From: a phage
NCBI GenBank assembly: GCA_036253495.1
Contig: GCA_036253495.1_4125.1
DNA length: 64,000 nt
Reading direction: 5' to 3' (one strand)
Shown here: positions 24,689 through 62,131 of the stretch, one piece after another
Layout: every line of letters begins with the position of its first letter
How positions within the stretch are numbered: the stretch's first letter is position 1
The notes under the pieces: model-generated
The model's input: only the letters and a program-made list of their open reading frames with translations
What the model was told of the DNA's origin: nothing
Database searches by the model: none
Program-made: the position numbers and the translations under genes

Positions 24689-24825
<137 letters not shown>

Positions 24826-24838
24826 CGAGGAATCCAAA

Positions 24839-25036
24839 GTGACTAAAGCAGAACTTGTAGCATTATTGGAATCATATCCCGATGATGCATGTATTGAAGT
24901 TGTTCATAGTGCGAGACATTTTGACATTGAAGATGTAGTACGTTATAATGACAAAGGTGTACTCATCATGGAACTATGTATTGGTGAAATGAAAACTGTA
25001 CCCGAATCAGAAAAACGTAAAAATAGTAAACCGTAA
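24839..25036 (+). CDS. hypothetical protein
   Basis: GTG start 24839 after ACGAGG RBS. Confidence 0.45.
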   Translation: MTKAELVALLESYPDDACIEVVHSARHFDIEDVVRYNDKGVLIMELCIGEMKTVPESEKRKNSKP

Positions 25037-25046
25037 GGAAAATAAA

Positions 25047-25265
25047 ATGGAATCTACTCTATTAGAAGTTATTAACTCATTAAACGCTGGCGACAATGTT
25101 CAAGTACTCCTACAGGGATACCGTGTAAAAGGTTCAGTAGTTTTAGTTAATGACACCACTGTTGTTGTAACTGAAACTAACCCGTTTGACAGTAATGAAC
25201 TTGCTAATATCCATATTGATATTAAAAGTATTATTGGTGTTGGTGTAACTAAACCACAAGAATAA
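25047..25265 (+). CDS. hypothetical protein
   Basis: AAGGAAAA RBS upstream of ATG 25047. Confidence 0.5.
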   Translation: MESTLLEVINSLNAGDNVQVLLQGYRVKGSVVLVNDTTVVVTETNPFDSNELANIHIDIKSIIGVGVTKPQE

Positions 25266-25286
25266 CAATTGTTATTGGGGATTACT

Positions 25287-25559
25287 ATGCATTTTGAAAA
25301 ATTCAATACAAATCGTAACACACGCATTGACGTTCTTTATGAAACACAAGACTCAATAAGCATTCGTACACGTAGTGGTGATGTATATCATGACTGTACT
25401 ATTGGTTGGGAACAGGGAAGAACACGTAGTGCAGAATTCGATAACTATCGCTTCTACCAAGGGGACACCACAATCTGGCCTGAAGACGTAGAAGATATTG
25501 CGATTGAAGATGAACATAAAGATGAATTTATAAAATTTAATCCCGAAACCGAATCATAA
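25287..25559 (+). CDS. hypothetical protein
   Basis: ATG 25287. Confidence 0.45.
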   Translation: MHFEKFNTNRNTRIDVLYETQDSISIRTRSGDVYHDCTIGWEQGRTRSAEFDNYRFYQGDTTIWPEDVEDIAIEDEHKDEFIKFNPETES

Positions 25560-25599
25560 ATATTGGAACAGACTATAAAGATGTGATATAATTATTATC

Positions 25600-26018
25600 A
25601 TGATAACAAAATACATGGAACGTAAAATGTGGGGAAACGAATATAAATCAAAACAAGGAAATATTGGAGTTGCTCGTGCAATAGATTACTATGTCACAAA
25701 TGGTTATTCAGTGTCTATACCCATGAATGATACACAATCATATGACTTGATAGTTGATGATAATATTAAATTGTATAGAGTATCAGTAAAACAACATCAT
25801 ATAAAGCACCATCTGGAAATTATAATGTTCAACTAAAAAATAGTGGTGGTTCTAGCGGTAAAAGTGTTATACGAAATTTTGATAAAACATCGTGCGACAT
25901 ACTGTTTGTGTTGTGTGATAACAACGACATATATATCATCCCAATTGATGACATTGATGCACATTCAGCACTTACATTAACTGAAGAACGTAAGAAATAT
26001 ATTAGAAAATTATATTAA
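25600..26018 (+). pseudogene. PD-(D/E)xK / Hjc-like nuclease gene split by a frameshift at an A4 run (25788-25791)
   Basis: Frame 1 ends ...YDLIVDDNIKLYRVSVK; frame 0 continues TTSYKAPSGNYNVQLKNSGG...DILFVLCDNNDIYIIPIDD to stop at 26018. Confidence 0.5.
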
Positions 26019-26025
26019 AAAATAT

Positions 26026-27714
<1,689 letters not shown>

Positions 27715-27717
27715 TTC

Positions 27718-27873
<156 letters not shown>

Positions 27874-27901
27874 CAAAACGAAATGATAATAGGAAATTAA
27901 A

Positions 27902-28087
27902 ATGCAACTTTTAATTCTTTCAATATTGTATATTATTATAATGGTTCCTATATCAATACGTTTAATTATACTTGAACGATTTTTATCGAAACATGGAAAT
28001 AGATCTATGATATTTGTACCAATCGGGCTTATATTGTTTGGTATATTTGCATTTATAATGGGAATTAACGCTACATTCATTTCATAG
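27902..28087 (+). CDS. small membrane protein
   Basis: ORF with two hydrophobic helices. Confidence 0.45.
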   Translation: MQLLILSILYIIIMVPISIRLIILERFLSKHGNRSMIFVPIGLILFGIFAFIMGINATFIS

Positions 28088-28096
28088 GAAACAAAT

Positions 28097-28578
<482 letters not shown>

Positions 28579-28585
28579 AAGAACG

Positions 28586-28618
<33 letters not shown>

Positions 28619-28619
28619 C

Positions 28620-28675
<56 letters not shown>

Positions 28676-28676
28676 T

Positions 28677-28807
<131 letters not shown>

Positions 28808-28808
28808 A

Positions 28809-28883
<75 letters not shown>

Positions 28884-28926
28884 GGTTCAAGAAGAAAACT
28901 GGGGTTTTTAACCTAACGAGGTCAAT

Positions 28927-29069
<143 letters not shown>

Positions 29070-29070
29070 A

Positions 29071-29201
<131 letters not shown>

Positions 29202-42024: not shown

Positions 42025-42987
42025 GTGAAGAAACTAGACTTAAACGCAATTTCCGAAGAAGTACTGGATGAATGTTTTGCGAATGAAGAAGTCAATCCAT
42101 TGGAAGCAATTGAACCATCAGAAGTTATTGAAGATGATATTCCACATAAAGTTCGTAGTAAAAGTAACATTAGTCTCAAGCGTCCAGTAGGTGTGACTAA
42201 TGAATCCATCATCGAAGAGATTCGTGCTGGAATTAATGTAAAAAAGAACACTGACCTATTACTTCGTTATAACTATGGTATGATCGTTGATGTTGCTTCA
42301 AAGTGTACATGTTATATTCCGTTTGAAGATAAAATTGCATATGGTGTAGAAGGTTTTATGCGAGCACTTAAAACCTTTGATCTTAGTAAGAATGTCAAAT
42401 TCATTACATATGCAACAACGTCCGTTTATATGACTATGTATAATGAAAGTTCAGATGCAAATTACATGGTGTACTTACCACGTTATATGAGCGTTCATAA
42501 CATCCAAGTACGTCGATTTAATGAATCATATCAACGTGAACACGGTAAGCGACCTACACCAGAATTAATCTCTGAGAGTACTGGTATCGAGCTTCAGCAC
42601 GTTAAGAACTGTTTGTTATACCAGAATGCATATACGACTCTTGATGCACAACTGGGTTCAGATTCAGACGGAACCCTTGGGGATATTCTGAGTTCATCTG
42701 CTCGTGATTATAACCTTAATGTTGATAGCATTTGTAATCCATTACGTTATGCAATCACAGAAATCATTGACGAATTGAGTACTAAAGAACGAGAAATTAT
42801 CATGCGTGTTCATGGTCTGGGGGATTACAAAGCAGAAACCCTTCGTGAAATTTCTGATAATGGATATGTTGATGATAAAGGAAACATTGTTAAGTCCCGT
42901 TCATCTGTGCACCGAAAATATAGTGAAGCTATTCAAAAGCTTAAAAAAATAGTACTTGAAAAAGGGTACGAATACGAAGATTTCTAA
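42025..42987 (+). CDS. sigma-70 family RNA polymerase sigma factor-like protein
   Basis: AGGAGA RBS, GTG start; region-2-like LLLRYNYGMIVDVASK...FMRALKTFDLSKNVKFITYATTSVYMT; region-4-like TKEREIIMRVHGLGD...ETLREIS...KYSEAIQKLKK. Confidence 0.7.
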   Translation: MKKLDLNAISEEVLDECFANEEVNPLEAIEPSEVIEDDIPHKVRSKSNISLKRPVGVTNESIIEEIRAGINVKKNTDLLLRYNYGMIVDVASKCTCYIPFEDKIAYGVEGFMRALKTFDLSKNVKFITYATTSVYMTMYNESSDANYMVYLPRYMSVHNIQVRRFNESYQREHGKRPTPELISESTGIELQHVKNCLLYQNAYTTLDAQLGSDSDGTLGDILSSSARDYNLNVDSICNPLRYAITEIIDELSTKEREIIMRVHGLGDYKAETLREISDNGYVDDKGNIVKSRSSVHRKYSEAIQKLKKIVLEKGYEYEDF

Positions 42988-42994
42988 AGAACAA

Positions 42995-43021
42995 GGGTTG
43001 ACTTAGGTCAGCCCTTTTTTT
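42995..43021 (+). terminator. intrinsic terminator
   Basis: Stem GGGTTGAC / GTCAGCCC with loop TTAG, followed by T7. Confidence 0.7.
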
Positions 43022-44039: not shown

Positions 44040-44069
44040 TCACCGAATGCAGTGAAGAGGAAATCTAAA

Positions 44070-44864
44070 ATGAGTACTATCGATGAATTGATTCGACGGA
44101 ATTCAAAATATTACCAACCATCAGAAATTGTGGATAATATTACTAAATCTGAGTTTGGACCTAATACTCGCAAACTCATTCATGTAATGTCTCGTGACGG
44201 CTTTAAATGTGATTGTTGTGGTGAATCCAATGTAGTATTCACTTTACATAAGCACAGTACTAAAGAACGTTATAAATTCAGACCTTATGTACTTAAAGGG
44301 AAACGTCTTGTACGCATGACGTTAGACCATAATGTACTGGACTGTCTCCAGGGTGGTAATGATAAAGAGAACATGACTGCACTGTGTGAGGATTGTAATG
44401 CCTTACGCCAGCATAAGTTCGCAGAGTACAGCGAGTTTAAGTACTGGTATCATAATGCAGACCGTTCAATTGAGCCTAATGTAAACTACTGCTTCATTGA
44501 GTACATCAAGAATGCAAAAGATACATACATTCTTAAATCCATGTCTCCGATTACAGTGTTTCCTGAGAATCTATTCAGTACTATGGAGCGTGATTTCAAG
44601 CGTGGTATCATCAATGCATTCAAGCACTTAGACAAAGGTATCAAGCACTTTGATGTTGAATGTTTAAATTCAGGTATGAATCATTTAGTACAAATTTACA
44701 TGAAATCGTTTATAGGTATTGACAGTGCACGACTACCAGTATATAATTACTTTATTGAAAGCGTAGAAGGTGAATCACTTCGTGATTATGGTGAAAGATT
44801 TAATAAGAAAGTTTTCACTGCAATAGCAAATGAGATTCATTACTATAAACCATATGTAATTTAA
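44070..44864 (+). CDS. HNH endonuclease-like protein
   Basis: CDCCGE ... DHNVLDCLQGGNDKENMTALCEDCN pattern (Cys pairs around His/Asn). Confidence 0.55.
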   Translation: MSTIDELIRRNSKYYQPSEIVDNITKSEFGPNTRKLIHVMSRDGFKCDCCGESNVVFTLHKHSTKERYKFRPYVLKGKRLVRMTLDHNVLDCLQGGNDKENMTALCEDCNALRQHKFAEYSEFKYWYHNADRSIEPNVNYCFIEYIKNAKDTYILKSMSPITVFPENLFSTMERDFKRGIINAFKHLDKGIKHFDVECLNSGMNHLVQIYMKSFIGIDSARLPVYNYFIESVEGESLRDYGERFNKKVFTAIANEIHYYKPYVI

Positions 44865-51425: not shown

Positions 51426-51457
51426 GGTTGACTAACGTCAGCCTTTTTTGTTATACT
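51426..51457 (+). promoter_or_regulatory. terminator-promoter composite cassette
   Basis: Hairpin GGTTGAC-TAAC-GTCAGCC plus T6; embedded TTGACT 51428-51433 and TATACT 51452-51457. Confidence 0.55.
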
Positions 51458-51596
51458 GATCCCAATATGCTTGCATTTCTTCAAGTTGATGTATATGAAG
51501 AAAGTAATGGCGAACAGTATGTTAAACTTGTGATGATGCGTAAGGCAGCAAAACAGGCAACATTCGGTGGCTTGTGTAAATATGAGGACTAAACAT

Positions 51597-51788
51597 ATGT
51601 TGATTTATCAATGTGATAACATTCGTGTTATACAGCATCCCTACTTACAAATCTTTGATGTGCAGCAGTATATGGAAGGTGATGACCCAAGAACCTATGG
51701 TCGTAAGTATGATTACTTCACTGTAAAGCAGTGTCGTAACATCAAAGAAGTACGACAATTAGTTCAAGAACTTCAAAATAAAGGTTGA
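51597..51788 (+). CDS. hypothetical protein
   Basis: ATG 51597 after GAGGACT RBS; track start 51567 is a non-ATG codon. Confidence 0.45.
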   Translation: MLIYQCDNIRVIQHPYLQIFDVQQYMEGDDPRTYGRKYDYFTVKQCRNIKEVRQLVQELQNKG

Positions 51789-51814
51789 CTTCGGTCAGCC
51801 TTTTTTGTTATAAT
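51783..51814 (+). promoter_or_regulatory. terminator-promoter composite cassette
   Basis: Hairpin GGTTGAC-TTCG-GTCAGCC plus T6; embedded TTGACT 51785-51790 and TATAAT 51809-51814. Confidence 0.65.
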
Positions 51815-51843
51815 CATTTCATCTACTACTGGGGATTTTAATT

Positions 51844-52284
51844 ATGTATGTATATCGTTTTGAACTTAAATTCAGTTATATTGAACCTAACTTAGATCCT
51901 GCAAAAACAGTAGGACCGTTCGCACGGTACTCTTCGCGATACAGTACTAAAAATGGATTTGAACGTTTGTGTATGACTACACCTTCGCAATTCCAACCTG
52001 AGCCAACTGAAGATGGGATCTATTCAATCAAACGTGGCTGGGCATTTGGATGCCAAAGTTTAAACGACCTGTTCAGATTCTTTACAATGGACTTAGGTAA
52101 ACTTCATCGTTCAGGATTTTCTGTTTTTGTGTATGAAGTTCCTGATAACCATGTAGACATTGGACATAACCAAGTGCAGTACTATTGTGGTAGTGCAAAA
52201 CTACTTCGTATTATGTCAGTAAAGGAAGCTAAAGAAGAATTTCGTGCTACAAGATTTAATAAGGAAGAGATGGCATATGGATAA
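51844..52284 (+). CDS. hypothetical protein
   Basis: GGGGA RBS. Confidence 0.5.
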   Translation: MYVYRFELKFSYIEPNLDPAKTVGPFARYSSRYSTKNGFERLCMTTPSQFQPEPTEDGIYSIKRGWAFGCQSLNDLFRFFTMDLGKLHRSGFSVFVYEVPDNHVDIGHNQVQYYCGSAKLLRIMSVKEAKEEFRATRFNKEEMAYG

Positions 52285-52633
52285 AACATCAACACGATTT
52301 GCAAAGTTCTTGAGTTATGAGATACCACAAGATCCGTATTTCGACCAACGTGACGATGAAGATTACATAAAGTTAACTCGTGAACTACGAAATAAGTTCC
52401 AACAGATTTTAAGTTCATACACTAATACACATCCACATTTAAAGTACTTCATTAAGGCAGATATAGATTCAGATGATTCTGAACTATCATTCCTTGAATA
52501 CACAGTTGAGTGTGTTGGGTATGTACCTGATAATAGTGTAATTAATCACAACAAAATAAAGTTCGACTTGTACGTTATTTGTGTTATAATGAACTTAATT
52601 GCACAAATGAACAACTATTCAATAGGGGATTAA
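52277..52633 (+). CDS. hypothetical protein
   Basis: In-frame ATG 52277; start uncertain. Confidence 0.45.
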   Translation: MDKTSTRFAKFLSYEIPQDPYFDQRDDEDYIKLTRELRNKFQQILSSYTNTHPHLKYFIKADIDSDDSELSFLEYTVECVGYVPDNSVINHNKIKFDLYVICVIMNLIAQMNNYSIGD

Positions 52634-52897
52634 ATGAAACTGAAATTGAACTATCATGGTTTTCGTCTGCGTGATGATGTGGAGTTCCTTCGTCGCACAC
52701 CAGGTGCTGAGTTGTTTTTAACTGAAATGGGTGTCCCATTTAAAGTCGAGCACATTGGTGACAATGACTGCCTGGTATATGATAATCAACCGGATATCAA
52801 CGTTCCGTGGTATTCTGAACATATGTACATTGATATGGCGGCTCGCTACAACTGTACGTTTGAAATTACATCTAAAGGTATTGCTATTCAATTCTAA
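52634..52897 (+). CDS. hypothetical protein
   Basis: GGGGA RBS. Confidence 0.5.
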   Translation: MKLKLNYHGFRLRDDVEFLRRTPGAELFLTEMGVPFKVEHIGDNDCLVYDNQPDINVPWYSEHMYIDMAARYNCTFEITSKGIAIQF

Positions 52898-52918
52898 TAG
52901 TCTGATGGACACGAGTAA

Positions 52919-53143
52919 ATGAAATACATGCTGGTGGCATTAATGTTTGTGAGCACAATAGTACAAGCCAGAATCAAGTACTTTGTGAAGTGTACAAACG
53001 TTAGCGGTGGCTACACAGAGACATATCAGGGTAAGTCGGTTAAGATGGCAATACACAATGATAGAGGAACAGTGATTTTCCTTGTGAATGATATAATCAT
53101 TTTGTACAAACCAGATGTACCATGTGAAGTAAAAAGATATTAA
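52919..53143 (+). CDS. secreted hypothetical protein (signal peptide)
   Basis: N-terminal hydrophobic leader ending VQA-R. Confidence 0.5.
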   Translation: MKYMLVALMFVSTIVQARIKYFVKCTNVSGGYTETYQGKSVKMAIHNDRGTVIFLVNDIIILYKPDVPCEVKRY

Positions 53144-53148
53144 ACTAC

Positions 53149-53180
53149 GGGGTTGGCATAAGTCAGCCCTTTTGTATAAT
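53149..53180 (+). promoter_or_regulatory. terminator-promoter composite cassette (degenerate copy)
   Basis: Hairpin GGGTTGGC-ATAA-GTCAGCCC plus T4; TTGGCA 53153-53158 and TATAAT 53175-53180. Confidence 0.5.
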
Positions 53181-53188
53181 GGTGACTT

Positions 53189-53767
53189 ATGAACCGTAAA
53201 GGTAAGTTTAAAGTATCAAAGAAGAATAAAAGTGGAAGGTTCAATGATATATGCTTAGGTTTTATCAAAGCACACAATAAACTTTCTGCCCTGAGTAGAA
53301 AGATAGTATCTAACAAGATTGATATTAGATATATAAGTACTAACAATAGTACAGGGAAAGATGCACATCCAACTGAAAATATTATTTCAGTATCCTTCGT
53401 ATACGATGGTCTGGACATTACGATAGATGATTACAGACGATACGGTACTGGGTTTATACGTATCTATTGCAGAGATGCATCTGATAAGCCGGAACGTATT
53501 CGTATTATCGGTACATTGAGTGCTGGTATATTTGAGTGGGAGATTGTTCAACTTAAAACTATCGATGAGTACACCACAAGTTCTAATATTATTGAGTTGA
53601 ATTGCAATGTGAAAGACCTCCCAAACTTGAGCGAAGAAGAATATTTTCAAGAAAGCTTGCTAACGCCAAATTTGGATGATATAATTAAACAATATAAGAC
53701 GATGGTGTACTTCTTCAAATGTATCAAACCTAAGACTTGTTTGATGAATATTGTCCGTGATCTATAA
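53189..53767 (+). CDS. FQ-motif paralog family protein
   Basis: C-terminal LSEEEYFQESLLTPNLDDI module. Confidence 0.55.
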   Translation: MNRKGKFKVSKKNKSGRFNDICLGFIKAHNKLSALSRKIVSNKIDIRYISTNNSTGKDAHPTENIISVSFVYDGLDITIDDYRRYGTGFIRIYCRDASDKPERIRIIGTLSAGIFEWEIVQLKTIDEYTTSSNIIELNCNVKDLPNLSEEEYFQESLLTPNLDDIIKQYKTMVYFFKCIKPKTCLMNIVRDL

Positions 53768-53778
53768 CAGGAAAAAAT

Positions 53779-54210
53779 ATGTGGGTTAACGTTAATAGTA
53801 CTGAACTTAATGAAATTGATATCTTTGCATTTGTTAATCTGGAAACTGATACCTTTGTTCGTGGACGTTTGTTCATGAGTTCTTCCTGTGTTCGCAGTAT
53901 TGCAGTTATGGATGAACTCGGTCAGGTAATTGAGTGTCTACCATTACCTGCATGGGCATATAGCAGTACTGAAGAAGATGTAATGCATAAGATCTTTGAA
54001 GGTATCAATAAGCTACCTGGTGCAGATGTGAAGAATAAGATATTCAACATTGAGAATAAGAACTACAGTGCAGATGTACTGCGTCCTTTAGTTGATTCAG
54101 TACTGCAAGCTGCATTAGCTAAACCTAAGTGCATTATTTTAAAGTACATTCCAGAACTTTCCCTAACTAAAGAGGATATGAAAGGATTTATATTCTCATC
54201 GGAGTTGTGA
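53779..54210 (+). CDS. hypothetical protein
   Basis: ORF with ATG 53779. Confidence 0.5.
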   Translation: MWVNVNSTELNEIDIFAFVNLETDTFVRGRLFMSSSCVRSIAVMDELGQVIECLPLPAWAYSSTEEDVMHKIFEGINKLPGADVKNKIFNIENKNYSADVLRPLVDSVLQAALAKPKCIILKYIPELSLTKEDMKGFIFSSEL

Positions 54211-54434
54211 TGAAAAGGTATAAAATTGAATACCTACTTAAAGTAAGAGAGAAAAGTATTAGTAGTGAGAAATACACCAGTGAGATATTCGTCAGAGATG
54301 AGTATTACATTGGTGAAAATGAAGTTGAAGTACTGTTACAATGCATAGAAAATGAATTTCGAGATATGACACGTTATATGTCATTTGAGATATCGTGTGC
54401 AAAAGTTACATTCTTGAACAATACTTCATATTAA
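54210..54434 (+). CDS. hypothetical protein
   Basis: ATG 54210 overlapping upstream stop. Confidence 0.5.
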   Translation: MKRYKIEYLLKVREKSISSEKYTSEIFVRDEYYIGENEVEVLLQCIENEFRDMTRYMSFEISCAKVTFLNNTSY

Positions 54435-54438
54435 AAAA

Positions 54439-54478
54439 GGGTTGACTTTTGTTGACCCTTTTTGCTATTCTATAAATA
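54439..54478 (+). promoter_or_regulatory. terminator-promoter composite cassette with downstream TATAAATA (T4 late-promoter-like)
   Basis: Hairpin GGGTTGAC-TTTT-GTTGACCC plus T5; TTGACT 54442-54447; TATAAATA 54471-54478. Confidence 0.5.
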
Positions 54479-54524
54479 TAGACATAGAGAATATATAACA
54501 TGAAATCTATGGAGAGAAATCAAA

Positions 54525-56063
54525 ATGCCAGGTAAATTCACTGACAAAAACGGCGGCAATATGGCTGGACACTCTGATAAATGGAGTGATGAGAATCGTC
54601 GCAAAAATAGTTTCCAAGCGGGGCAAGGTTCCCGTGGCTCTCGCAACCAAGGAACGGGAGAAGCTGGGAAAGCAAACACAGTTGCATCACAGGGTCTTGA
54701 TACTTCAAACATGTCCCAGCATGAAAAATTGAAGTACTTCAATAGTCTTGGTCTTTTAAATCCGCAGCAGAAGCAACAACTTGCTGCTCTGGATAAAGCA
54801 CAAGAACAACCTAAAGCAGCACCTGAAGCACCTGCACAGCCTAAAGCGGCTAATCCGGTAAAAGAACTAAGTGATAAACTTGGGAAGATCTTTGCTAACA
54901 AACCACAACTAATTCAAGGTATCGTAAAAGCACTTCAAGCGGTTCCTAAAGAACAACTCAAGGATAAAGCACAAGCTGTTCTTGATAGTATGAAAGGGAA
55001 TACCAGTACTGAACCAACTGAAGTATTCAGTACTATCATGCGTGCACTTGAAGGTAAGCCACAGGCCGATGATGATATTGAGTTTGATGAACCTGCACAA
55101 GAAGTAGCAAATCTTGACTCAATCGTTTCTACATTTGGAAAAATTGGTGCAGAAGATAAGACTAATGCACAACAAGTTAAGAATGTACAAGCTAAGTTAC
55201 AAAATCGTCTTGAAGGTAAAGATGAAAAGATTAAACTTGCAGCAGATGCGTTGAAGAAAGCATTAGAATCATATAAACCTGGTGAGAAATCTCGCTTCAT
55301 TACTGCAATGAATGCAGTATTCGGTGCAATGAAAAAGTATGAAGCTGAACACGGTGAGAAAGTAACTCCTGATGGATATCTCCTTCGAAAAGATGAAGAA
55401 GGTGCTGTTGACCAGAAGGACGCTGAACCAGACTATGGTGATTTACCGGATACAGTTGATATGGATGGTTACATTCATCGTCCTGATATGCAAGAATTTG
55501 GTTCAGACAAAGAAGGTTTTGAACATGCTATGGCTGTGTACAAAGCATTAGTCGATAATCCACAATATGCAAATAGTTTTGTAGATGAGTTTGATAGTGC
55601 ATGGAACAACTACCAAGACAAAGGATATGATTTCCCAGCAGAAGCAGCATTCTTTGAACTAGGTAAACTTCTTGCTAAAAATGGTATTAATGTTGGTTCT
55701 AATGGTGAAGCAAACACTTCAGAAATGGACGCTGAATTGGCTAAAGATCGTGAAATGACTGATAAGTCAATTCATGAACTACAAAAGCTAATGATGTGGA
55801 TTGCTGAAATTGGTAAGAAAGCTGGTGCAGATCCTAAGAGCATTAACAGCAATATTAGTTGGATTAAACATAAGGTTGATAACAATGCCCGTAAATTACA
55901 AAAGGCATGGACCGACCTAGTGAATGGTGCAGACGATGTTGATATCGATTCACCGGAAGCATACGAGTACGCATTGAACACACTTGATAACTCTTTCCAG
56001 GATTACGAAAATGGTAACGTAACTGATTGGGAAAAGGATATCATGCATAAGTACGGTAAATGA
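54525..56063 (+). CDS. Ala/Lys/Gln-rich low-complexity protein (possible virion internal protein)
   Basis: 512-aa ORF, GC-richer codon usage than neighbours; flanked by strong terminator-promoter cassettes. Confidence 0.6.
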   Translation: MPGKFTDKNGGNMAGHSDKWSDENRRKNSFQAGQGSRGSRNQGTGEAGKANTVASQGLDTSNMSQHEKLKYFNSLGLLNPQQKQQLAALDKAQEQPKAAPEAPAQPKAANPVKELSDKLGKIFANKPQLIQGIVKALQAVPKEQLKDKAQAVLDSMKGNTSTEPTEVFSTIMRALEGKPQADDDIEFDEPAQEVANLDSIVSTFGKIGAEDKTNAQQVKNVQAKLQNRLEGKDEKIKLAADALKKALESYKPGEKSRFITAMNAVFGAMKKYEAEHGEKVTPDGYLLRKDEEGAVDQKDAEPDYGDLPDTVDMDGYIHRPDMQEFGSDKEGFEHAMAVYKALVDNPQYANSFVDEFDSAWNNYQDKGYDFPAEAAFFELGKLLAKNGINVGSNGEANTSEMDAELAKDREMTDKSIHELQKLMMWIAEIGKKAGADPKSINSNISWIKHKVDNNARKLQKAWTDLVNGADDVDIDSPEAYEYALNTLDNSFQDYENGNVTDWEKDIMHKYGK

Positions 56064-56072
56064 TAAAAAAGA

Positions 56073-56104
56073 GGTTGACTTCGGTCAGCCTTTTTTGCTA
56101 TAAT
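56073..56104 (+). promoter_or_regulatory. terminator-promoter composite cassette
   Basis: Hairpin GGTTGAC-TTCG-GTCAGCC plus T6; TTGACT 56075-56080 and TATAAT 56099-56104. Confidence 0.65.
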
Positions 56105-56131
56105 ACTCACATAACCTAAAGGAGAAACTCT

Positions 56132-56407
56132 ATGAACACATACGAACGTTTAGTTGGCTCAATGCGTTATGAAGAAATTTTAAGTGATATCGAAGAACTG
56201 AAAGACTCGAAAAGTTACATCCACTTAGATGAACTTATCGTGAAGTATGGGGAGGTTGGTGCAAAAGAATTAATTTGCTTTATGGTTCATGTTCGAAATT
56301 TAAATTACTTTGATCTTTCATCGAAGAACGGTGAACCGAATCTTTATTATCTATATTATTTGAAACATAAAGATGCATGTAATAAATTATTCTTAGAACT
56401 TTTATAA
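56132..56407 (+). CDS. hypothetical protein
   Basis: AAGGAGAA RBS. Confidence 0.5.
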   Translation: MNTYERLVGSMRYEEILSDIEELKDSKSYIHLDELIVKYGEVGAKELICFMVHVRNLNYFDLSSKNGEPNLYYLYYLKHKDACNKLFLELL

Positions 56408-56420
56408 CTGGAGATATCTA

Positions 56421-56681
56421 ATGCAAAACCCTGAATTGAAAATGTTTACACAAATCCGTCTTGCTCGTGTTGAACATGACACTAACTATGTACTGAACGA
56501 TGGTCCTCCACAACGCGTTGAAGTTGGTTATATTGACGTTGATAATTCACAATCTCTTCTGATTACCATTGGTTCTAACTCTTACAGTGTTGCTACACTG
56601 GAGAGTGTATTGTCCTTGGCACAATCCGCAAGGATTGCCCGTAACGCTCTTATGAACTGTGATGAACCTGATAATGAATGA
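56421..56681 (+). CDS. hypothetical protein
   Basis: GGAGAT RBS. Confidence 0.5.
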   Translation: MQNPELKMFTQIRLARVEHDTNYVLNDGPPQRVEVGYIDVDNSQSLLITIGSNSYSVATLESVLSLAQSARIARNALMNCDEPDNE

Positions 56682-57012
56682 TTATATGTATGAATTAAAC
56701 ATGATATCGTTTGTTTTATCGGGTATCGGATGGATGTACTATATGCTTGGGTATATTTTATTATTCTTCCGATACAATACATTCTACAAACGCTATTGGG
56801 ATGATGCACCAATTCACTTCTTCGCATTTGTATTCTTAACTATGGCAGTGGGTGAAGTACTGCTAACTGGTATCCAAAATACTGGTGGAATGATGTGCAC
56901 ACTAACAACATTCTTTGTTGTTTTTGGGACTGTAGTTTGGTTTTTCGCGTGGGGACTCTTCTCTTTGATTATGAAACTTGAGAAACTCCGAGACAAATTA
57001 CCAGAGCGTTGA
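56674..57012 (+). CDS. membrane protein
   Basis: ATG overlapping upstream stop; hydrophobic helices; start uncertain. Confidence 0.45.
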   Translation: MNDYMYELNMISFVLSGIGWMYYMLGYILLFFRYNTFYKRYWDDAPIHFFAFVFLTMAVGEVLLTGIQNTGGMMCTLTTFFVVFGTVVWFFAWGLFSLIMKLEKLRDKLPER

Positions 57013-57013
57013 T

Positions 57014-57041
57014 GAAAAGTATTTGACAAACTCAACTAGTA
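57014..57041 (+). promoter_or_regulatory. sigma70-type promoter with GTACTG-TATAAT extended -10
   Basis: TTGACA 57014-57019, TATAAT 57036-57041. Confidence 0.6.
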
Positions 57042-57097
57042 CTGTATAATGTTTATCAAGGGGATGAACTTCTCATCCCTACAATCGAGGAACTACC

Positions 57098-57652
57098 ATG
57101 ATTACTTTTAAGAAAACTGCCAACCACATCCATGAAATCTACATTAACGGTCACAAAGCTGGCCTTCTTCGTTTACTCGCCCATCATCCTGATGCTACCG
57201 TATCTGATAATGAACCTAAAGATTGGCGTGTCTTTTTCTTTGGGAAGTACAGTGATTTTCAAGTATCAAACCTGAAGAACATTCGTTCAGTATGCACGTT
57301 AACTGAAATTAAAGAAAAGTTAGCCAAAGCATTGAAAACTAATCCAGATGGTGTTCTTCCACCTGATAACTTTGTAGAGAAAGGATATGCCTTAGCTCAT
57401 TTCAAAGATGGTACTATTCAATCTATCAGTACTGAATATGAATACCAATGGACTGAGTACTTCACTTATGGCTCCCGTGATACTTTGATGGCTTCACGTA
57501 GTAAATTGGAAGAAGTACTGACTCGTATGAATGAACGCGAGCGTCAGTACTATGACAAACCAGAAATGTGGAGTTCAACTTACATTGACCGTATTGACTA
57601 TGTTATGATGACTCCAATCTTTGACACTGCTTACTATGATTCTTTGAAATAA
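57098..57652 (+). CDS. hypothetical protein
   Basis: GAGGAA RBS. Confidence 0.55.
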   Translation: MITFKKTANHIHEIYINGHKAGLLRLLAHHPDATVSDNEPKDWRVFFFGKYSDFQVSNLKNIRSVCTLTEIKEKLAKALKTNPDGVLPPDNFVEKGYALAHFKDGTIQSISTEYEYQWTEYFTYGSRDTLMASRSKLEEVLTRMNERERQYYDKPEMWSSTYIDRIDYVMMTPIFDTAYYDSLK

Positions 57653-57663
57653 GGATAACTTAT

Positions 57664-57840
57664 ATGAAACTACGTACTCGTAATCGACTGATGGATGCCC
57701 TATATCATGAACAGTGTTCATTAAATGAAGTAAAGCGTCAGTTAATGTACACATATCAGTTACCCGCTCGTGTTGCAAAACAACGTGCTAACGAATTGCT
57801 GAAAGAAGCAATCGAGTACTGGGAATCTGATTCGTACTAA
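57664..57840 (+). CDS. small hypothetical protein (58 aa)
   Basis: AAGGATAA RBS; below ORF-track cutoff. Confidence 0.4.
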   Translation: MKLRTRNRLMDALYHEQCSLNEVKRQLMYTYQLPARVAKQRANELLKEAIEYWESDSY

Positions 57841-57879
57841 TATTACGTGATATGTCACGTTAATTAAGTGAGGCGATAA

Positions 57880-58131
57880 ATGAAAATTTTATTAGTTCTA
57901 ATACTACTAATTGTTTTACCATTTACTTTAGTATCCCCTGAACTTGCATGGAATGTGTTTGTGTACTTAGTATGTACTATTGTAGTAAATGGTATCTTGT
58001 TCTTAGTTCTATTCATAAATGGAATAGGACACGGTGGAGGATGGACCAGTACTGCTGATATTGTACATAAAACCACTATGTCTTTATTTGTAGTGTGGAA
58101 TTTATTCTGGACTTGGTTTGTGTTCTTCTAA
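57880..58131 (+). CDS. small membrane protein
   Basis: GAGGCG RBS; hydrophobic helices. Confidence 0.5.
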   Translation: MKILLVLILLIVLPFTLVSPELAWNVFVYLVCTIVVNGILFLVLFINGIGHGGGWTSTADIVHKTTMSLFVVWNLFWTWFVFF

Positions 58132-58140
58132 TTAAAAAAT

Positions 58141-58512
58141 ATGAATATAGATTTGAAAGGTGCAACACGAACTGTCATACTCATTGGGGAATATGCTATC
58201 AAGATTCCAACCTTCAAAAGCTGGAAGTTATTCCTAATTGGAATGATAGCTAACCTCAATGAACGCTCATGGATGCAGTACTCCAAGCGTAGTGATAGTG
58301 GGATATGTCCTACTCTGTGGTCATCGCGAACTGGCTTAATAACAGTACAGAAACGTTGTAAGCCAGTACAACATAGGGGTTTGTTTTGGGTGGAGTTGAG
58401 TGCATTAGCATTGAATTCAGAGTTGAGTACTGACTTCTTCTATTCAGATGCGAAGCCAGAAAACTTTGGATATTTGAATGGTAAGTTAGTTAAGCTTGAT
58501 TATGGAGATTGA
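58141..58512 (+). CDS. mini protein-kinase-like ORF
   Basis: G-rich loop then AIK; later DAKPEN and LDYGD resembling catalytic-loop and DFG-type motifs; only 123 aa. Confidence 0.4.
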   Translation: MNIDLKGATRTVILIGEYAIKIPTFKSWKLFLIGMIANLNERSWMQYSKRSDSGICPTLWSSRTGLITVQKRCKPVQHRGLFWVELSALALNSELSTDFFYSDAKPENFGYLNGKLVKLDYGD

Positions 58513-58597
58513 TAAGTTTATGGAAATTGTTTTAATCGTTGCATTTGTTACATTAGTATGTACTACCATTTAATATATTTTACGAGGATAATGTGAA

Positions 58598-58927
58598 ATG
58601 AAAAAACTACTAACTATTTTAGTACTATCTGCTATTACGTTGACGGCTGGATGTACCGTTAAAAAAGATTTATTCCCTGTTGGTGGAAGTAAAGCTGATG
58701 GTGTTATTAGGCTTGGATACACATTCGACCAGCGATCTGAAATTCCATTAATTGATTTGGAACAGGGATTGTATGTAGCTACTAAACGATGCCAAAAGTG
58801 GGGATATTCAGGTGCTGAAATTTTTGGTGGCTCCACAACAATGTGTTCTGACCAACGTCCACTGGGGTGTGTTGCAACAAATGTCACATATGAATATCAA
58901 TGTACTGGTGACTTAAAAGAAAAATAA
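58598..58927 (+). CDS. putative lipoprotein
   Basis: GAGGATAA RBS; signal peptide with lipobox-like LTAGC. Confidence 0.55.
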   Translation: MKKLLTILVLSAITLTAGCTVKKDLFPVGGSKADGVIRLGYTFDQRSEIPLIDLEQGLYVATKRCQKWGYSGAEIFGGSTTMCSDQRPLGCVATNVTYEYQCTGDLKEK

Positions 58928-58937
58928 TCTTTTACAT

Positions 58938-58970
58938 GGGTTGACTTCGTTCAGCCCTTTTTGCTATAAT
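58938..58970 (+). promoter_or_regulatory. terminator-promoter composite cassette
   Basis: Hairpin GGGTTGA...TCAGCCC plus T5; TTGACT 58941-58946 and TATAAT 58965-58970. Confidence 0.65.
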
Positions 58971-58998
58971 TATTTCATCAAGACGAGAGGATGAATAC

Positions 58999-59436
58999 AT
59001 GACCCGCATTAACTTAGTACACGTTAAAGAACTTGCTGACCAACATCTGATGGCTGAATATCGTGAACTTCCACGTGTATTTGGTGCTGTACAAAAACAT
59101 GTTCAAGCACGTAAGCGTGTACGTGATTTCAAAATTAACAGTACTTATCTGTTAGGTTCAGGTCATGTAACATTCTTCTACGACAAGTTACTATACTTAC
59201 AGAAGCGTCATATTGATATTGTTAACGAATGTTTGCGTCGTGGTATGAAGATTCAAAACACTGAAGTAAACGACATTAGCGGCTTCCCTGCTGAGTTTTG
59301 TAATGACTACGTACCATCGGAGTCCGAGATTAAAACATCACGCGAGCGTTTGATTGAGAAGCTTCAGATGAAGCCTAAGTGGTATAAGTTTACTGATGTT
59401 GAGCTACCTATATATTATGTTGATATGATACAATGA
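58999..59436 (+). CDS. denV: endonuclease V (pyrimidine-dimer DNA glycosylase/AP lyase), T4 DenV homolog
   Basis: Near-identical N-terminal block MTRINL...[21 protein letters not shown] and [10 protein letters not shown] core match T4 endonuclease V as I recall it; GAGAGG RBS. Confidence 0.9.
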
Positions 59437-59660
59437 ATGATGAAGAATTCAAAAAATATGCGATTGCGAAGCTTGATTCATACAAGTCACGCGAAACGTA
59501 TAAATTTAATCCTGATAAAACAAAAGCATCTATAAGATGGATGATTAATTCACCCAAATATACATTTGACGAAAAATATTCATGGATAGTGCAATGTAGT
59601 GATTATGAGGATTTGGTATATAATATTAAACTGTGTTGGTATGAATACAACAATAAATGA
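59433..59660 (+). CDS. hypothetical protein
   Basis: ATGA overlap with denV. Confidence 0.5.
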
Positions 59661-59666
59661 TATAAG

Positions 59667-59699
59667 GGGTTGACTTCGGTCAGCCCTTTTTGCTATAAT
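59667..59699 (+). promoter_or_regulatory. terminator-promoter composite cassette
   Basis: Hairpin GGGTTGAC-TTCG-GTCAGCCC plus T5; TTGACT 59670-59675 and TATAAT 59694-59699. Confidence 0.7.
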
Positions 59700-59725
59700 C
59701 ATTTCATCAACTCAAGAGGTAATAC

Positions 59726-59965
59726 ATGAAACTATCTTTTATACGTTTAGCAGAATTCTTCGGTACTGATATAATTACTTTACAACAAATTGCAGACAAT
59801 ACTTCATTAAGCACACAAGAAGTACTTGACTTAGATGTGATAGAGTGTGATAATACTTCTATCGATTATAAAGAAGGTCTTGTCGAAAAAGATAAGATTC
59901 AGGCTAAGATTAATGGTGCTGGACGGGTTCAGTACTGGAAAGGGGTTTTAAGTAATGCGTGTTGA
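59726..59965 (+). CDS. hypothetical protein
   Basis: GAGG RBS. Confidence 0.5.
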   Translation: MKLSFIRLAEFFGTDIITLQQIADNTSLSTQEVLDLDVIECDNTSIDYKEGLVEKDKIQAKINGAGRVQYWKGVLSNAC

Positions 59966-61289
59966 TATTAAAGTACCTTTTAAATGTGAACCACTGAAAT
60001 TTGTCCAAGATTATGAAATATCTAAAACTATCGAATTTAGTGAAACCGCTTCAAAACTTGATATTAGTAGGAAAATTTTAGGTGAAAAGTATCCAGATGT
60101 AATATGGGATGATTTCAATCCATATAATATGGAAAAAGATGAAATGTGTAAAGACGAAATTATTGGCTTTGTTCGTATGGGAGTTCAAAATCTAAAATAT
60201 TATGCATATATATGTCAAAAATGCTCGACAAATTCAAAACAAAATGGTTTAGGTATATTTTTTACATTAAAAAGATATATTAAAAATAAAATTACATGTA
60301 TGTGCTCAAAAACACCACTATATACAAATTATCAACGAACTATACAACTTCATAATAAATCTATAAGTTTAGGTTATGTGTTTATTGGATATAATAAAGA
60401 AAAACAAATAACTTCGGATGCTAAAATAAAACTAGGATGTTATAATCATGGTATGTGGGATACTATAACAATAAATTCGTATAACACCAACTCACGCGGC
60501 TGTTCAAAATGTGCTGGTGTTCATTCACCATCACAGGAAGAAGCAAATGAAAAAATAAAACAAATTTGTAATGAAAATAAATTAGTATTTCAACCTTTCC
60601 TATATAAAAATAATAAAACTAAAATTTTTGTAAGATGTTTGGTATGTAATGAATCATGGGAGTCAAACTATTTTAAACTTTATACCATGAAATATGGTTG
60701 CCAACGTTGTGTAGGAACAAAAAAGTTAACTACTGAGATTTCTACAGGAATTGTATCAGATTATTGTACAAAATATAAGTTGACTTTCATTCCATTTGTG
60801 TATGATAATAATAAGATGAAAATATCTCTACGTTGTGATATTTGTTCACATGAATGGATAACACCATTCAATGGTATTACTAATAGAATGGGGTGTCCAA
60901 GATGTAATCCAACTGAAGCAATACGTATTTCTAAAGATTTAGATCCATTAATAGATGATTTTCAGCCGGAAAAGAAATTCCTTGAACTTGGAAAGATGCG
61001 ATTTGATAGATTCAGTCAACGATTAAACATTCTGTTTGAATATGATGGGGAACAACACTTTATTTCCAATAGGGTTTGGCATTCTACTACATCTAAGTTT
61101 GAATCTTCTCGTGAACGTGACAGTATAAAAACAGAATACGCAATAAAAAATGGATATAACTTCATTCGTATTGCGTATTATGAAGACCATATTGGAGCAT
61201 TGAAATCTTTCCTTAAACTCATTGAAGAGAATCCAGGAAAGCAAATCGTACAGATCTATGGTGATGTTCAAATCTTAGACAAGAAATAA
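59955..61289 (+). CDS. putative homing-type endonuclease with tandem Zn-ribbon repeats and C-terminal Vsr/DUF559-like nuclease domain
   Basis: Repeated CxxC modules (CQKC, CSKC, CQRC, CPRC) in about 45-aa repeats; C-terminal FDRFSQRLNILFEYDGEQHF...RDSIKTEYAIKNGYNFIRIAY. Confidence 0.55.
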   Translation: MRVDIKVPFKCEPLKFVQDYEISKTIEFSETASKLDISRKILGEKYPDVIWDDFNPYNMEKDEMCKDEIIGFVRMGVQNLKYYAYICQKCSTNSKQNGLGIFFTLKRYIKNKITCMCSKTPLYTNYQRTIQLHNKSISLGYVFIGYNKEKQITSDAKIKLGCYNHGMWDTITINSYNTNSRGCSKCAGVHSPSQEEANEKIKQICNENKLVFQPFLYKNNKTKIFVRCLVCNESWESNYFKLYTMKYGCQRCVGTKKLTTEISTGIVSDYCTKYKLTFIPFVYDNNKMKISLRCDICSHEWITPFNGITNRMGCPRCNPTEAIRISKDLDPLIDDFQPEKKFLELGKMRFDRFSQRLNILFEYDGEQHFISNRVWHSTTSKFESSRERDSIKTEYAIKNGYNFIRIAYYEDHIGALKSFLKLIEENPGKQIVQIYGDVQILDKK

Positions 61290-61299
61290 CAATACAAAA

Positions 61300-61332
61300 G
61301 GGTTGACTTCGGTCAGCCCTTTTTGCTATAAT
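61300..61332 (+). promoter_or_regulatory. terminator-promoter composite cassette
   Basis: Hairpin GGGTTGAC-TTCG-GTCAGCCC plus T5; TTGACT 61303-61308 and TATAAT 61327-61332. Confidence 0.7.
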
Positions 61333-61360: not shown

Positions 61361-62131
61361 ATGACCAGAGAAGCACGCAGCATTCAAATTCAGAAAAACT
61401 TCAACTCCATGATGGTTGCTCTTGAGTGTTTGCTCGATGATAGCAGTACTGTAAAAAGTATGGTTGTCAGCGGTGCTCCTGGTGTTGGTAAGACTTACAC
61501 CCTCTCTAAACGCCTCCAGAAAGCACATGACGCGGCAGAATGGAACGTAGCTACCATCAGTGGTAAAATGACCACTCTGGCTCTGTACGAAGTTCTGTAC
61601 AAGAATCGTCATAGCACCAACGTGTTAGTACTGGATGATATGGACAGCATCTTTGATTCAGAAGACGGTATGAACCTGCTCAAAGCAGTACTGGATAGTG
61701 GCAAGCGTACTGTTTCTTATATGACTAGCTCGAAGTATCTGAGCAGCAACGGTATCCCTAACAGCTTTGATTTTAATGGTCGCATCGTATTCATTACTAA
61801 CAAAGATTTAGCACTGAATGCTAAAGCTAAAACTAAAATGTCTGCTCACTATGCTGCTCTTATGTCTCGCTCTGTATACGTTGACTTACAGATCCAGACC
61901 AAAAGCGATATCATGATTCACATTGAGAACGTGATGAACCAGACCAACATTCTGGAATCTAAGGGTATTAACAGTAATGGTAGTAAAGCAATCCTGAACT
62001 GGATGTTGAAGCACGAAGATTCACTTCGTTCACCTTCACTGCGTATGCCACTGTTGATTTCGGCAGTATATAACAACAACCCATACGATTGGGAAGAGCA
62101 ATGTGAAAACTTGTTCCTGGAGAAAAATTAA
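61361..62131 (+). CDS. P-loop NTPase (AAA-like ATPase)
   Basis: Walker A GAPGVGKT, Walker B VLVLDDMD; GC-richer codon usage (CTG, CGT, ACC) than neighbours. Confidence 0.65.
   Translation: MTREARSIQIQKNFNSMMVALECLLDDSSTVKSMVVSGAPGVGKTYTLSKRLQKAHDAAEWNVATISGKMTTLALYEVLYKNRHSTNVLVLDDMDSIFDSEDGMNLLKAVLDSGKRTVSYMTSSKYLSSNGIPNSFDFNGRIVFITNKDLALNAKAKTKMSAHYAALMSRSVYVDLQIQTKSDIMIHIENVMNQTNILESKGINSNGSKAILNWMLKHEDSLRSPSLRMPLLISAVYNNNPYDWEEQCENLFLEKN

Follow-up and report, generated by a model that had tools for sequence, protein, structure and literature searches.

A 64,000-nucleotide (nt) stretch of phage DNA (contig GCA_036253495.1_4125.1 of assembly GCA_036253495.1), hereafter called the window, carries a repeated intergenic element of about 33 nt in which a predicted intrinsic terminator and a predicted promoter share the same bases. 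Eight such elements lie between positions 51426 and 61332 and a ninth, reduced to the terminator, stands at 42995. They probably are cassettes of the promoter-early stem-loop (PeSL) type, first described in T4-like phages. The genes of the window are nearly all on the + strand and are for the most part annotated as hypothetical. Between 51000 and 62000, the DNA is 98.9% identical to Escherichia phage A4, a member of the genus Asteriusvirus with a genome of 355.5 kb. Alignments with further jumbo coliphages, among them 121Q, PBECO4, slurp01 and G17, cover 29-46% of this part at 84-90% identity. The T4-type genome assumed in the initial annotation of this DNA has thus to be replaced by a RaK2/121Q-like one, as the nearest records are classified as Caudoviricetes, Asteriusvirus; the genome has genes annotated with T4-like functions, namely UvsY, RecA, a baseplate wedge and a late sigma factor. 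A search of the window for TTGAC-N16-20-TAnnnT returned 45 matches on the + strand vs 6 on the - strand, and the window is therefore an early-type region, rich in sigma-70 promoters, of a RaK2/121Q-like jumbo coliphage. The idea that 51-62 kb is more divergent from other Asteriusvirus genomes than 1-25 kb was rejected: megablast coverage is similar for both (29-46% vs 27-30%), so the whole window is variable.

Each complete element includes an 8-bp hairpin, in most cases capped by a cUUCGg tetraloop, and a U-tract next to it. The 5' arm of the hairpin contains the -35 hexamer TTGACT; the spacer between this hexamer and TATAAT holds the T-run and a TGn extended -10, and a conserved YAT start site lies downstream of TATAAT. 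Hairpin, U-tract, -35, TGn, -10 and start site are packed into 33-40 nt between a stop codon and the next Shine-Dalgarno (SD) sequence. All nine sites listed in the initial annotation were recovered at their coordinates, on the + strand and in intergenic gaps. A search with the 20-mer GGGTTGACTTCGGTCAGCCC, allowing at most 3 mismatches, found six of them vs 0.00 expected from 100 dinucleotide-preserving shuffles, and visual inspection together with a scan for base pairing confirmed the remaining three, which diverge more. The arrangement first proposed for all eight composites, with TTGACT in the stem, the T-run in the spacer and TATAAT at the correct distance, holds for five canonical copies (51783, 56073, 58938, 59667 and 61300), which have an 18-nt spacer and TGn, and fails for the degenerate copies at 51426, 53149 and 54439. 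At 42995, the expected terminator-only form is indeed present, and the extended flank ATTTCATCAA described for 58938, 59667 and 61300 is real and common to these three.

The eight elements occupy gaps of 45-90 nt between open reading frames (ORFs) of the + strand. Seven of them start 4-11 nt past the upstream stop codon, and at 51783 the stop codon lies within the element. As with the intergenic position of PeSLs, a proper SD-containing leader follows in five or six of the eight copies; in the five canonical ones, SD and ATG are found with the ATG 27-30 nt past the -10. The view that each element insulates a single gene was not upheld, as the intervals between successive elements contain 2, 4, 3, 1, 8, 2 and 2 annotated genes, only one of them being a single-gene interval. 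The whole A4 genome has 13 copies of the family, every one of them on the + strand. Four are located at 15-24 kb, where the ORFs are very small, and the other nine at 320.9-338.6 kb, which corresponds to the window. None was found in the approximately 300 kb in between, a stretch with replication, nucleotide-metabolism and virion genes. In 121Q, seven of eight exact-hairpin matches belong to two of the three loci returned, covering this same region. Like PeSLs, the copies are thus concentrated in variable early regions, as indicated by the A4 clusters, the 121Q loci and the low megablast coverage. The four A4 copies at 15077, 17843, 21152 and 23911, which are outside the window, have TGG/GGA stem variants and TATTAT as -10; in this cluster, the very small ORFs are separated by gaps of approximately 85 nt, and each copy is followed by a conserved leader with a further small hairpin-like repeat, e.g., GCCCACAGGG. 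Selfish repeats similar to miniature inverted-repeat transposable elements or repetitive extragenic palindromes were considered and rejected, because terminator and promoter signals account for the sequence of the elements; every copy points in the direction of transcription and lies in a stop-to-start gap.

Only four indels or replacements distinguish the window from A4 along its 64 kb (Table 1). Two of these have their end at composite elements, and one more has its start at a different promoter. The 44090-44609 indel is unrelated to any promoter or terminator. In the synteny comparison with related phages that had been suggested at cassette boundaries, indels and mosaic blocks begin or end at elements; an association with indels and replacements between relatives is a mark of PeSLs, and junctions between genes are favoured anyway. 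Identity to A4 is 83.8% for the element at 58938 with its leader vs 99.3% for the initial 400 nt of the gene that follows. In the window, the allele agrees with 121Q and G17; the A4 allele has a loop and leader matching slurp01 and ELP22 and a 5' flank matching 121Q. This element is thus itself a recombinant patchwork, or chimera. Compared with the 121Q group, blocks of 94-95% identity begin at 57023, 58938, 59656 and 61284, each at a promoter element; elsewhere, identity is 67-86% where the sequences align, and the remaining parts do not align. Three slots between conserved element-led gene starts display 4, 3 and 6 different lengths among six genomes. In slurp01, the same leader, ATCGAAACGAGAGG, is found at two neighbouring elements; the corresponding 121Q elements are unlike one another, a pattern suggestive of intragenomic conversion.

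An alternative is that the elements are regulatory only and that their coincidence with boundaries comes from selection for intergenic junctions or from the mobility of homing-endonuclease-like genes. Indeed, the elements account for most intergenic sequence, neither nearby indel has its left edge at an element, and the gene of the most variable slot encodes CapR and treble-clef domains, its counterparts being annotated as an endonuclease, also with a CapR domain, in 121Q and as a homing endonuclease in ELP22. Self-mobility of this gene may add to the variability of the slot. As a full account, this explanation is nevertheless unlikely. The 58938 element combines alleles of different relatives in an otherwise 99% identical background, four separate high-identity blocks start at most 16 nt from an element, and the leader common to the slurp01 neighbours, but not to their 121Q counterparts, points to conversion.

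Table 1. Coordinates of the elements, other features of the window and differences from phage A4 (aa, amino acids)
Coordinates	Strand	Feature	Composition and folding	Context
42995..43021	+	Terminator-only copy	GGGTTGAC-TTAG-GTCAGCCC, T7, no -10 (score 3/6); -17.3 kcal/mol, z -5.0	8 nt past stop codon of the sigma factor gene 42025-42987
51426..51457	+	Degenerate composite	GGTTGAC-TAAC-GTCAGCC, T6, TGT, TATACT; -16.2 kcal/mol, z -6.25	ATG at 51467, 9 nt past -10 (nearly leaderless mRNA predicted for a 41-aa ORF); no counterpart found at same position in 121Q, G17, slurp01, ELP22
51783..51814	+	Canonical composite	AGGTTGAC-TTCG-GTCAGCCT, T6, TGT, TATAAT	TGA stop of upstream ORF inside TTGAC; SD; ATG (51844) 30 nt past -10; orthologous copy kept in 5/5 relatives, annotated as terminator in G17
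53149..53180	+	Degenerate composite	GGGGTTGGC-ATAA-GTCAGCCC, T4, TATAAT; -13.9 kcal/mol; -35 TTGGCA (A4: TTGACA), 16-nt spacer, no TGn	ATG 8 nt past -10
54439..54471	+	Composite with altered 3' arm	GGGTTGAC-TTTT-GTTGACCC; -16.1 kcal/mol, z -6.1; 8 pairs retained via two G.U wobbles; weak -10 TATTCT	ATG at 54525 opens a 512-aa gene; 121Q and ELP22 counterparts annotated virion structural protein
56073..56104	+	Canonical composite	AGGTTGAC-TTCG-GTCAGCCT, T6, TGC, TATAAT; -16.7 kcal/mol	SD AAGGAG; ATG 56132; orthologues in 121Q, G17, slurp01, ELP22 keep the hairpin and have lost the -10
58938..58970	+	Canonical promoter half, weakened hairpin	G>T in 3' arm; -10.2 kcal/mol	Precedes pyrimidine-dimer glycosylase (endonuclease V) gene
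59667..59699	+	Canonical composite	GGGTTGAC-TTCG-GTCAGCCC, T5, TGC, TATAAT, then CATTTCATCAA; -16.3 kcal/mol (+ strand) vs -9.2 (- strand)	ATG 59726
61300..61332	+	Canonical composite	Same 33 nt as 59667 copy bar one base past -10; -17.6 kcal/mol (+ strand) vs -13.3 (- strand)	ATG at 61361 opens an AAA-type ATPase gene
57023..57050	+	Plain sigma-70 promoter, no hairpin	TTGACA, 16-nt spacer, TATAAT	
42025-42987	+	Sigma-70-family sigma factor gene	Pfam Sigma70_r2 and r3	
58598..58927	+	YecR-like lipoprotein gene	PF13992, E 9e-22; lipobox signal LTAGC	
59955..61289	+	Hypervariable gene slot between two elements	444-aa protein, CapR + treble-clef zinc finger	Six different lengths in six genomes
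24770-26292		1.5-kb segment replacing 240 bp of A4		Starts 7 nt before -35 of promoter at 24776
44090-44609		520-bp indel vs A4		Inside ORF 44052-44864; junction at microhomology TATC..AAT
58515-58937		423-bp segment absent from A4		Carries the YecR-like lipoprotein gene; ends exactly at 58938 element
59959-61287		444-aa CapR/treble-clef gene vs 565-aa gene in A4		From start codon to 12 nt before 61300 element

The promoter half is best seen by comparing copies of the same hairpin in phages and in bacteria. A good -10, defined by at least five of six matching bases at a 16-19-nt spacer, is found in 87 of 115 distinct phage copies vs 1 of 18 distinct bacterial ones, which shows that the -10 is not a by-product of the terminator. 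When these 87 phage copies are aligned on the -10, TGn appears upstream (T in 81/87, G in 70/87) and YAT, with A in 75/87, stands exactly 7 nt past the -10, the canonical position of a start site. TGn and YAT thus look like promoter-specific signals that a terminator does not need. An A-tract precedes the stem, as does the A+T-rich tract upstream of the sigma-70-like early promoter in PeSLs, and the 8-bp stem covering the -35 corresponds to their stable stem-loop overlapping or adjacent to the promoter.

These data bear on the proposal that the elements are ordinary intrinsic terminators, any likeness to a promoter being produced by a TTGAC-containing stem in A+T-rich intergenic DNA. Bacteria do use the same hairpin and T-run as a plain terminator, at 17 loci from Acinetobacter, Vibrio, Exiguobacterium and Bacteroidetes, and published annotations list the phage sites as terminators only. 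Thus, the sites are marked in the G17 GenBank record as Rho-independent terminators predicted by ARNold, and the GGGTTGACTTCGGTCAGCCC hairpins are Torf39, 515, 518 and 520 in the terminator table in the supplement of the CBB paper, none of the hairpin matches found there being in the promoter table (PMC5259590). Moreover, the copy at 42995 and several orthologous copies are devoid of a -10. The proposal is nonetheless very improbable given the contrast between phage and bacterial copies, the conservation of TGn and YAT at promoter positions, and a stem whose 5' arm retains TTGAC while variation is concentrated in, and absorbed by, the 3' arm.

The terminator half shows what is found in intrinsic terminators, that is, a G+C-rich hairpin and a U-tract, co-oriented with the genes and located downstream of one. 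Folding of the + strand RNA of the elements gave -10.2 to -17.6 kcal/mol (z -3.5 to -6.25), and a run of 4-7 Ts is directly 3' of the stem in every copy. Folding of the reverse strand is weaker by 4-7 kcal/mol because a conserved U.G turns into a C.A mismatch. Covariation was analyzed on 41 distinct hairpin types collected from the window, five relatives and IMG/VR loci. Standard pairs occupy 98.2% of the pair cells, a percentage inflated by the pre-selection of this set for at least 6 of 8 pairs, which leaves the pair-type switches unaffected. Compensatory changes take place among G-C, A-U and U-A at pair 1 and between G-C and A-U at pair 3, and the number of double-sided changes (n=10) was equalled in 0 of 500 shuffles. 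The residual stem variation consists of G.U-compatible transitions. More than 15 different tetraloops, TTCG being by far the commonest, are tolerated while the stems stay paired. That the inverted repeat is instead a DNA operator by which a dimeric phage regulator would cover the -35 of an early promoter, e.g., for early shut-off, is extremely improbable: such a repeat over a -35 is the classic operator layout and symmetric half-site changes would mimic covariation, but the half-sites are asymmetric in DNA, the T.G position and the G.U-type variants (GTCGG, GTTGG, GTTAG) pair only as + strand RNA, the repeat is always set between an A-tract and a T-tract just downstream of a stop codon, bacteria that have no such phage regulator use the identical hairpin at gene ends, and no candidate binding protein was identified.

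Taken together, the elements are read, with a probability of roughly 0.8, as PeSL-type cassettes in which a terminator and a host sigma-70 promoter would occupy the same bases, in an Asteriusvirus jumbo coliphage. The PeSL resemblance and the role as recombination joint put forward in the initial annotation held in the folding, covariation, wobble, -10 control, TGn/start-site and breakpoint tests. The part of it stating that each element both terminates and restarts transcription is secure at the level of sequence for the five canonical copies, the promoters of the three others being weak or oddly placed. According to the proposed mechanism, an incoming RNA polymerase would transcribe the A-tract, the 8-bp G+C-rich stem with its cUUCGg loop and the U5-7 tract, and the transcript would be released in this tract, i.e., within the promoter spacer. 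The same duplex would offer a sigma-70 holoenzyme an A-rich UP-like tract upstream, a -35 TTGACT formed by the last five bases of the 5' arm and the first loop base, a 17-18-bp spacer comprising the remainder of the hairpin and the T-run, then the TGn extended -10, TATAAT and the YAT start 7 nt further. The new mRNA would start downstream of the hairpin, and so without it, with a 20-25-nt leader carrying the SD sequence. Each downstream unit of 1-8 genes would be transcriptionally reset in this way, which would allow gene gain or loss without polar effects.

Because it is repeated, the 45-70-nt element probably also acts as a homology patch for cassette exchange between paralogous sites and between co-infecting relatives; the coincidence of elements with recombination junctions is, for its part, shown by comparison of the sequences. 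The conserved U.G wobble would make the element directional by giving a good hairpin in + strand RNA only, and it probably also avoids a second TTGAC, that is, an antisense -35 on the opposite strand.

Several points weigh against the reading as PeSL-type cassettes, besides the pre-selection of the covariation set. Termination and initiation are both predictions. Three of the eight promoters (51426, 53149 and 54439) are weak or oddly placed: the -10 at 54439 matches at 4/6 positions only, and those at 51426 and 53149 may give nearly leaderless mRNAs or be unused. In relatives, the hairpin of some orthologous copies persists without the -10, which makes the promoter half dispensable at certain sites. 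A sigma-70-family factor is encoded by the phage itself, and the holoenzyme using the element promoters is therefore only presumed to be sigma-70. As for recombination, the opposite edges of the indels are not at elements, and, since viable indels fall between genes and elements fill most of the intergenic space, a part of the breakpoint coincidence would be expected anyway. Beside the 53149 copy, a ribosome-binding-like GGTGA is present at 53181-53185, which would be included only in read-through transcripts.

The initial annotation regarded the regularity of the elements as unusual, but the identical hairpin-promoter is found again throughout the RaK2-like clade as well as in phages unrelated to it. 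The exact 18-mer GGTTGACTTCGGTCAGCC, which carries the wobble, has 56 occurrences in 39 IMG/VR stretches vs 5 for the perfectly paired variant (GTCAACC), and nearly all its copies are followed by a T-run and a -10. They are found in jumbo-phage contigs that we take to be RaK2, GAP32, CBB and 121Q, and further IMG/VR contigs of 354-366 kb also carry it. Hairpin-promoter copies were also detected in stretches that match the KVP40-like Vibrio phage VH7D (100%), the Cronobacter phage CR9 (96%) and the Brochothrix phage A9, which has a Gram-positive host (100%). The core shared across phages is GGGTTGAC-TTCG-GTCAGCCC, T-run, TGn, TATAAT or TATTAT, and YAT. In many copies from different phage families, CATCGAAAC, or a sequence close to it, opens the leader right at the predicted start site; it may provide context for the start, serve as a leader signal shared by these copies, or reflect a common origin. 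At 58970-58985, the leader start is CATCAAGACGAGAGG in the window vs CATCGAAACGAGAGG in A4.

This distribution could mean that the elements are more than a local PeSL variant, namely a cassette moving horizontally between unrelated phage families and/or a device for on-the-spot re-initiation by the terminating polymerase, which is quite unlikely. With a release site inside the promoter, re-initiation would take advantage of an RNA polymerase that stays on the DNA once it has terminated, as reported for the E. coli enzyme (bioRxiv 10.1101/663534). Convergence is a simpler alternative to such mobility or re-initiation because the design is tightly constrained by a -35 ending in C, a UUCG loop and a G-rich stem base.

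Other features of the window were noticed around these elements. The YecR-like lipoprotein gene, absent from A4, forms a moron-style insertion just upstream of the endonuclease V cassette, and the lipoprotein may have an envelope or exclusion function. The 565-aa A4 gene at the variable slot has no Pfam match. The promoters at 26630, 27039, 27589, 45434, 45782 and 57023 have in common AGTACT near the -35 and CAGTACTGTATAATGTTT at the -10, and two promoters of this group are directly upstream of tRNA-Gly (27076) and tRNA-Ser (27624). A second hairpin-promoter family, built on promoters with AGTACT and CAGTACTGTATAAT, was considered and dropped, as most of its members fold no better than shuffles (z +1.6 to -1.7); two unrelated hairpins nearby, at 36259 and 40287, fold well. 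At 964-1011 and 2171-2207, consensus promoters TTGACA...TATAAT have their -10 within a strong hairpin with a T-run (-13.1 and -15.8 kcal/mol) that would fall partly in the promoter's own transcript; they look like a PeSL subclass with the stem-loop overlapping the -10. The tRNA cluster at 24770-29191 includes Gly, Ser, Met, Asn and Thr (ARAGORN) and a weak sixth Rfam match at 26026, and is adjacent to the 1.5-kb replacement segment of Table 1. With Rfam covariance models, only tRNAs of the window reach the gathering score and the elements match no family.

PeSL-type cassettes, and the modular gene shuffling linked to them, would thus be extended from T4-like to RaK2/121Q-like jumbo phages, a clade for which earlier listings of these sequences mention terminators only. 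No description of PeSL-like composites in Asteriusvirus or RaK2-like phages, and no report of promoter, terminator or mini-circle assays on them, was found in the full text of open-access papers, an absence that is not proof. In genome annotations, such sites would deserve a label both as boundaries of transcription units and as likely recombination joints. To phage engineers, they would offer natural insertion points for cargo genes and a compact 33-nt part predicted to insulate from upstream transcription and to drive its own gene. Their strict regularity and the control set of terminator-only bacterial copies also make them a convenient system for studying how a terminator and a promoter share bases.

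Among known systems, C(UUCG)G tetraloop terminator hairpins were reportedly described by Tuerk et al. in 1988 in intercistronic regions of T4. The elements resemble such Rho-independent terminators by their G+C-rich stem, extra-stable cUUCGg loop and U-tract just past the stop codon, and differ from them in that the stem is built around a -35 hexamer and followed by a full promoter. Lambdoid morons, i.e., genes with their own promoter and terminator (PMC2839356), are likewise self-contained units that can be added without disturbing their neighbours, and the YecR-like lipoprotein gene behaves like one of them; here, however, the regulatory element is a conserved repeat serving as a joint.

The closest counterparts are the PeSLs of RB49 and phi1, repeated intergenic cassettes which comprise a near-consensus sigma-70 promoter, an A+T-rich upstream tract, a stem-loop, and an SD sequence with a start codon (PMC2839356). 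Five subclasses are distinguished; the stem-loop may be placed over the -35, over the -10, in the interval separating the two boxes or just outside them (PMC2839356). Promoter and terminator activities were demonstrated with lacZ fusions, and the cassettes sit at indels and form mini-circles detected by inverse PCR (Arbiol et al. 2010, PMC2839356). In nt-1 and KVP40, the PeSL has the stem consensus A3-4 G3-loop-C3 T3-4 and the promoter TTGYVH-N17-TAWWAT (Comeau et al. 2014, PMC4122927), and the present element fits this stem consensus. Common to both are the strong sigma-70-type promoter, the A-rich upstream tract, the stem-loop overlapping the -35, the SD sequence and ATG at the 3' end, the repetition in variable early regions and the location at indel or replacement junctions between close relatives. 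The elements differ by their host genome, an Asteriusvirus jumbo phage of approximately 355 kb rather than a T4-like phage, and by forming one very uniform subclass vs five mixed subclasses in RB49/phi1; whereas activities and mini-circles were shown for the latter, the present ones are known from sequence alone. Judged at that level, they share every feature of PeSLs except the T4-like host, and this last feature reflects the site of the first PeSL description, not the mechanism. The PeSL kind being already known from T4-like phages, the present elements are a new example of it, not a new principle.

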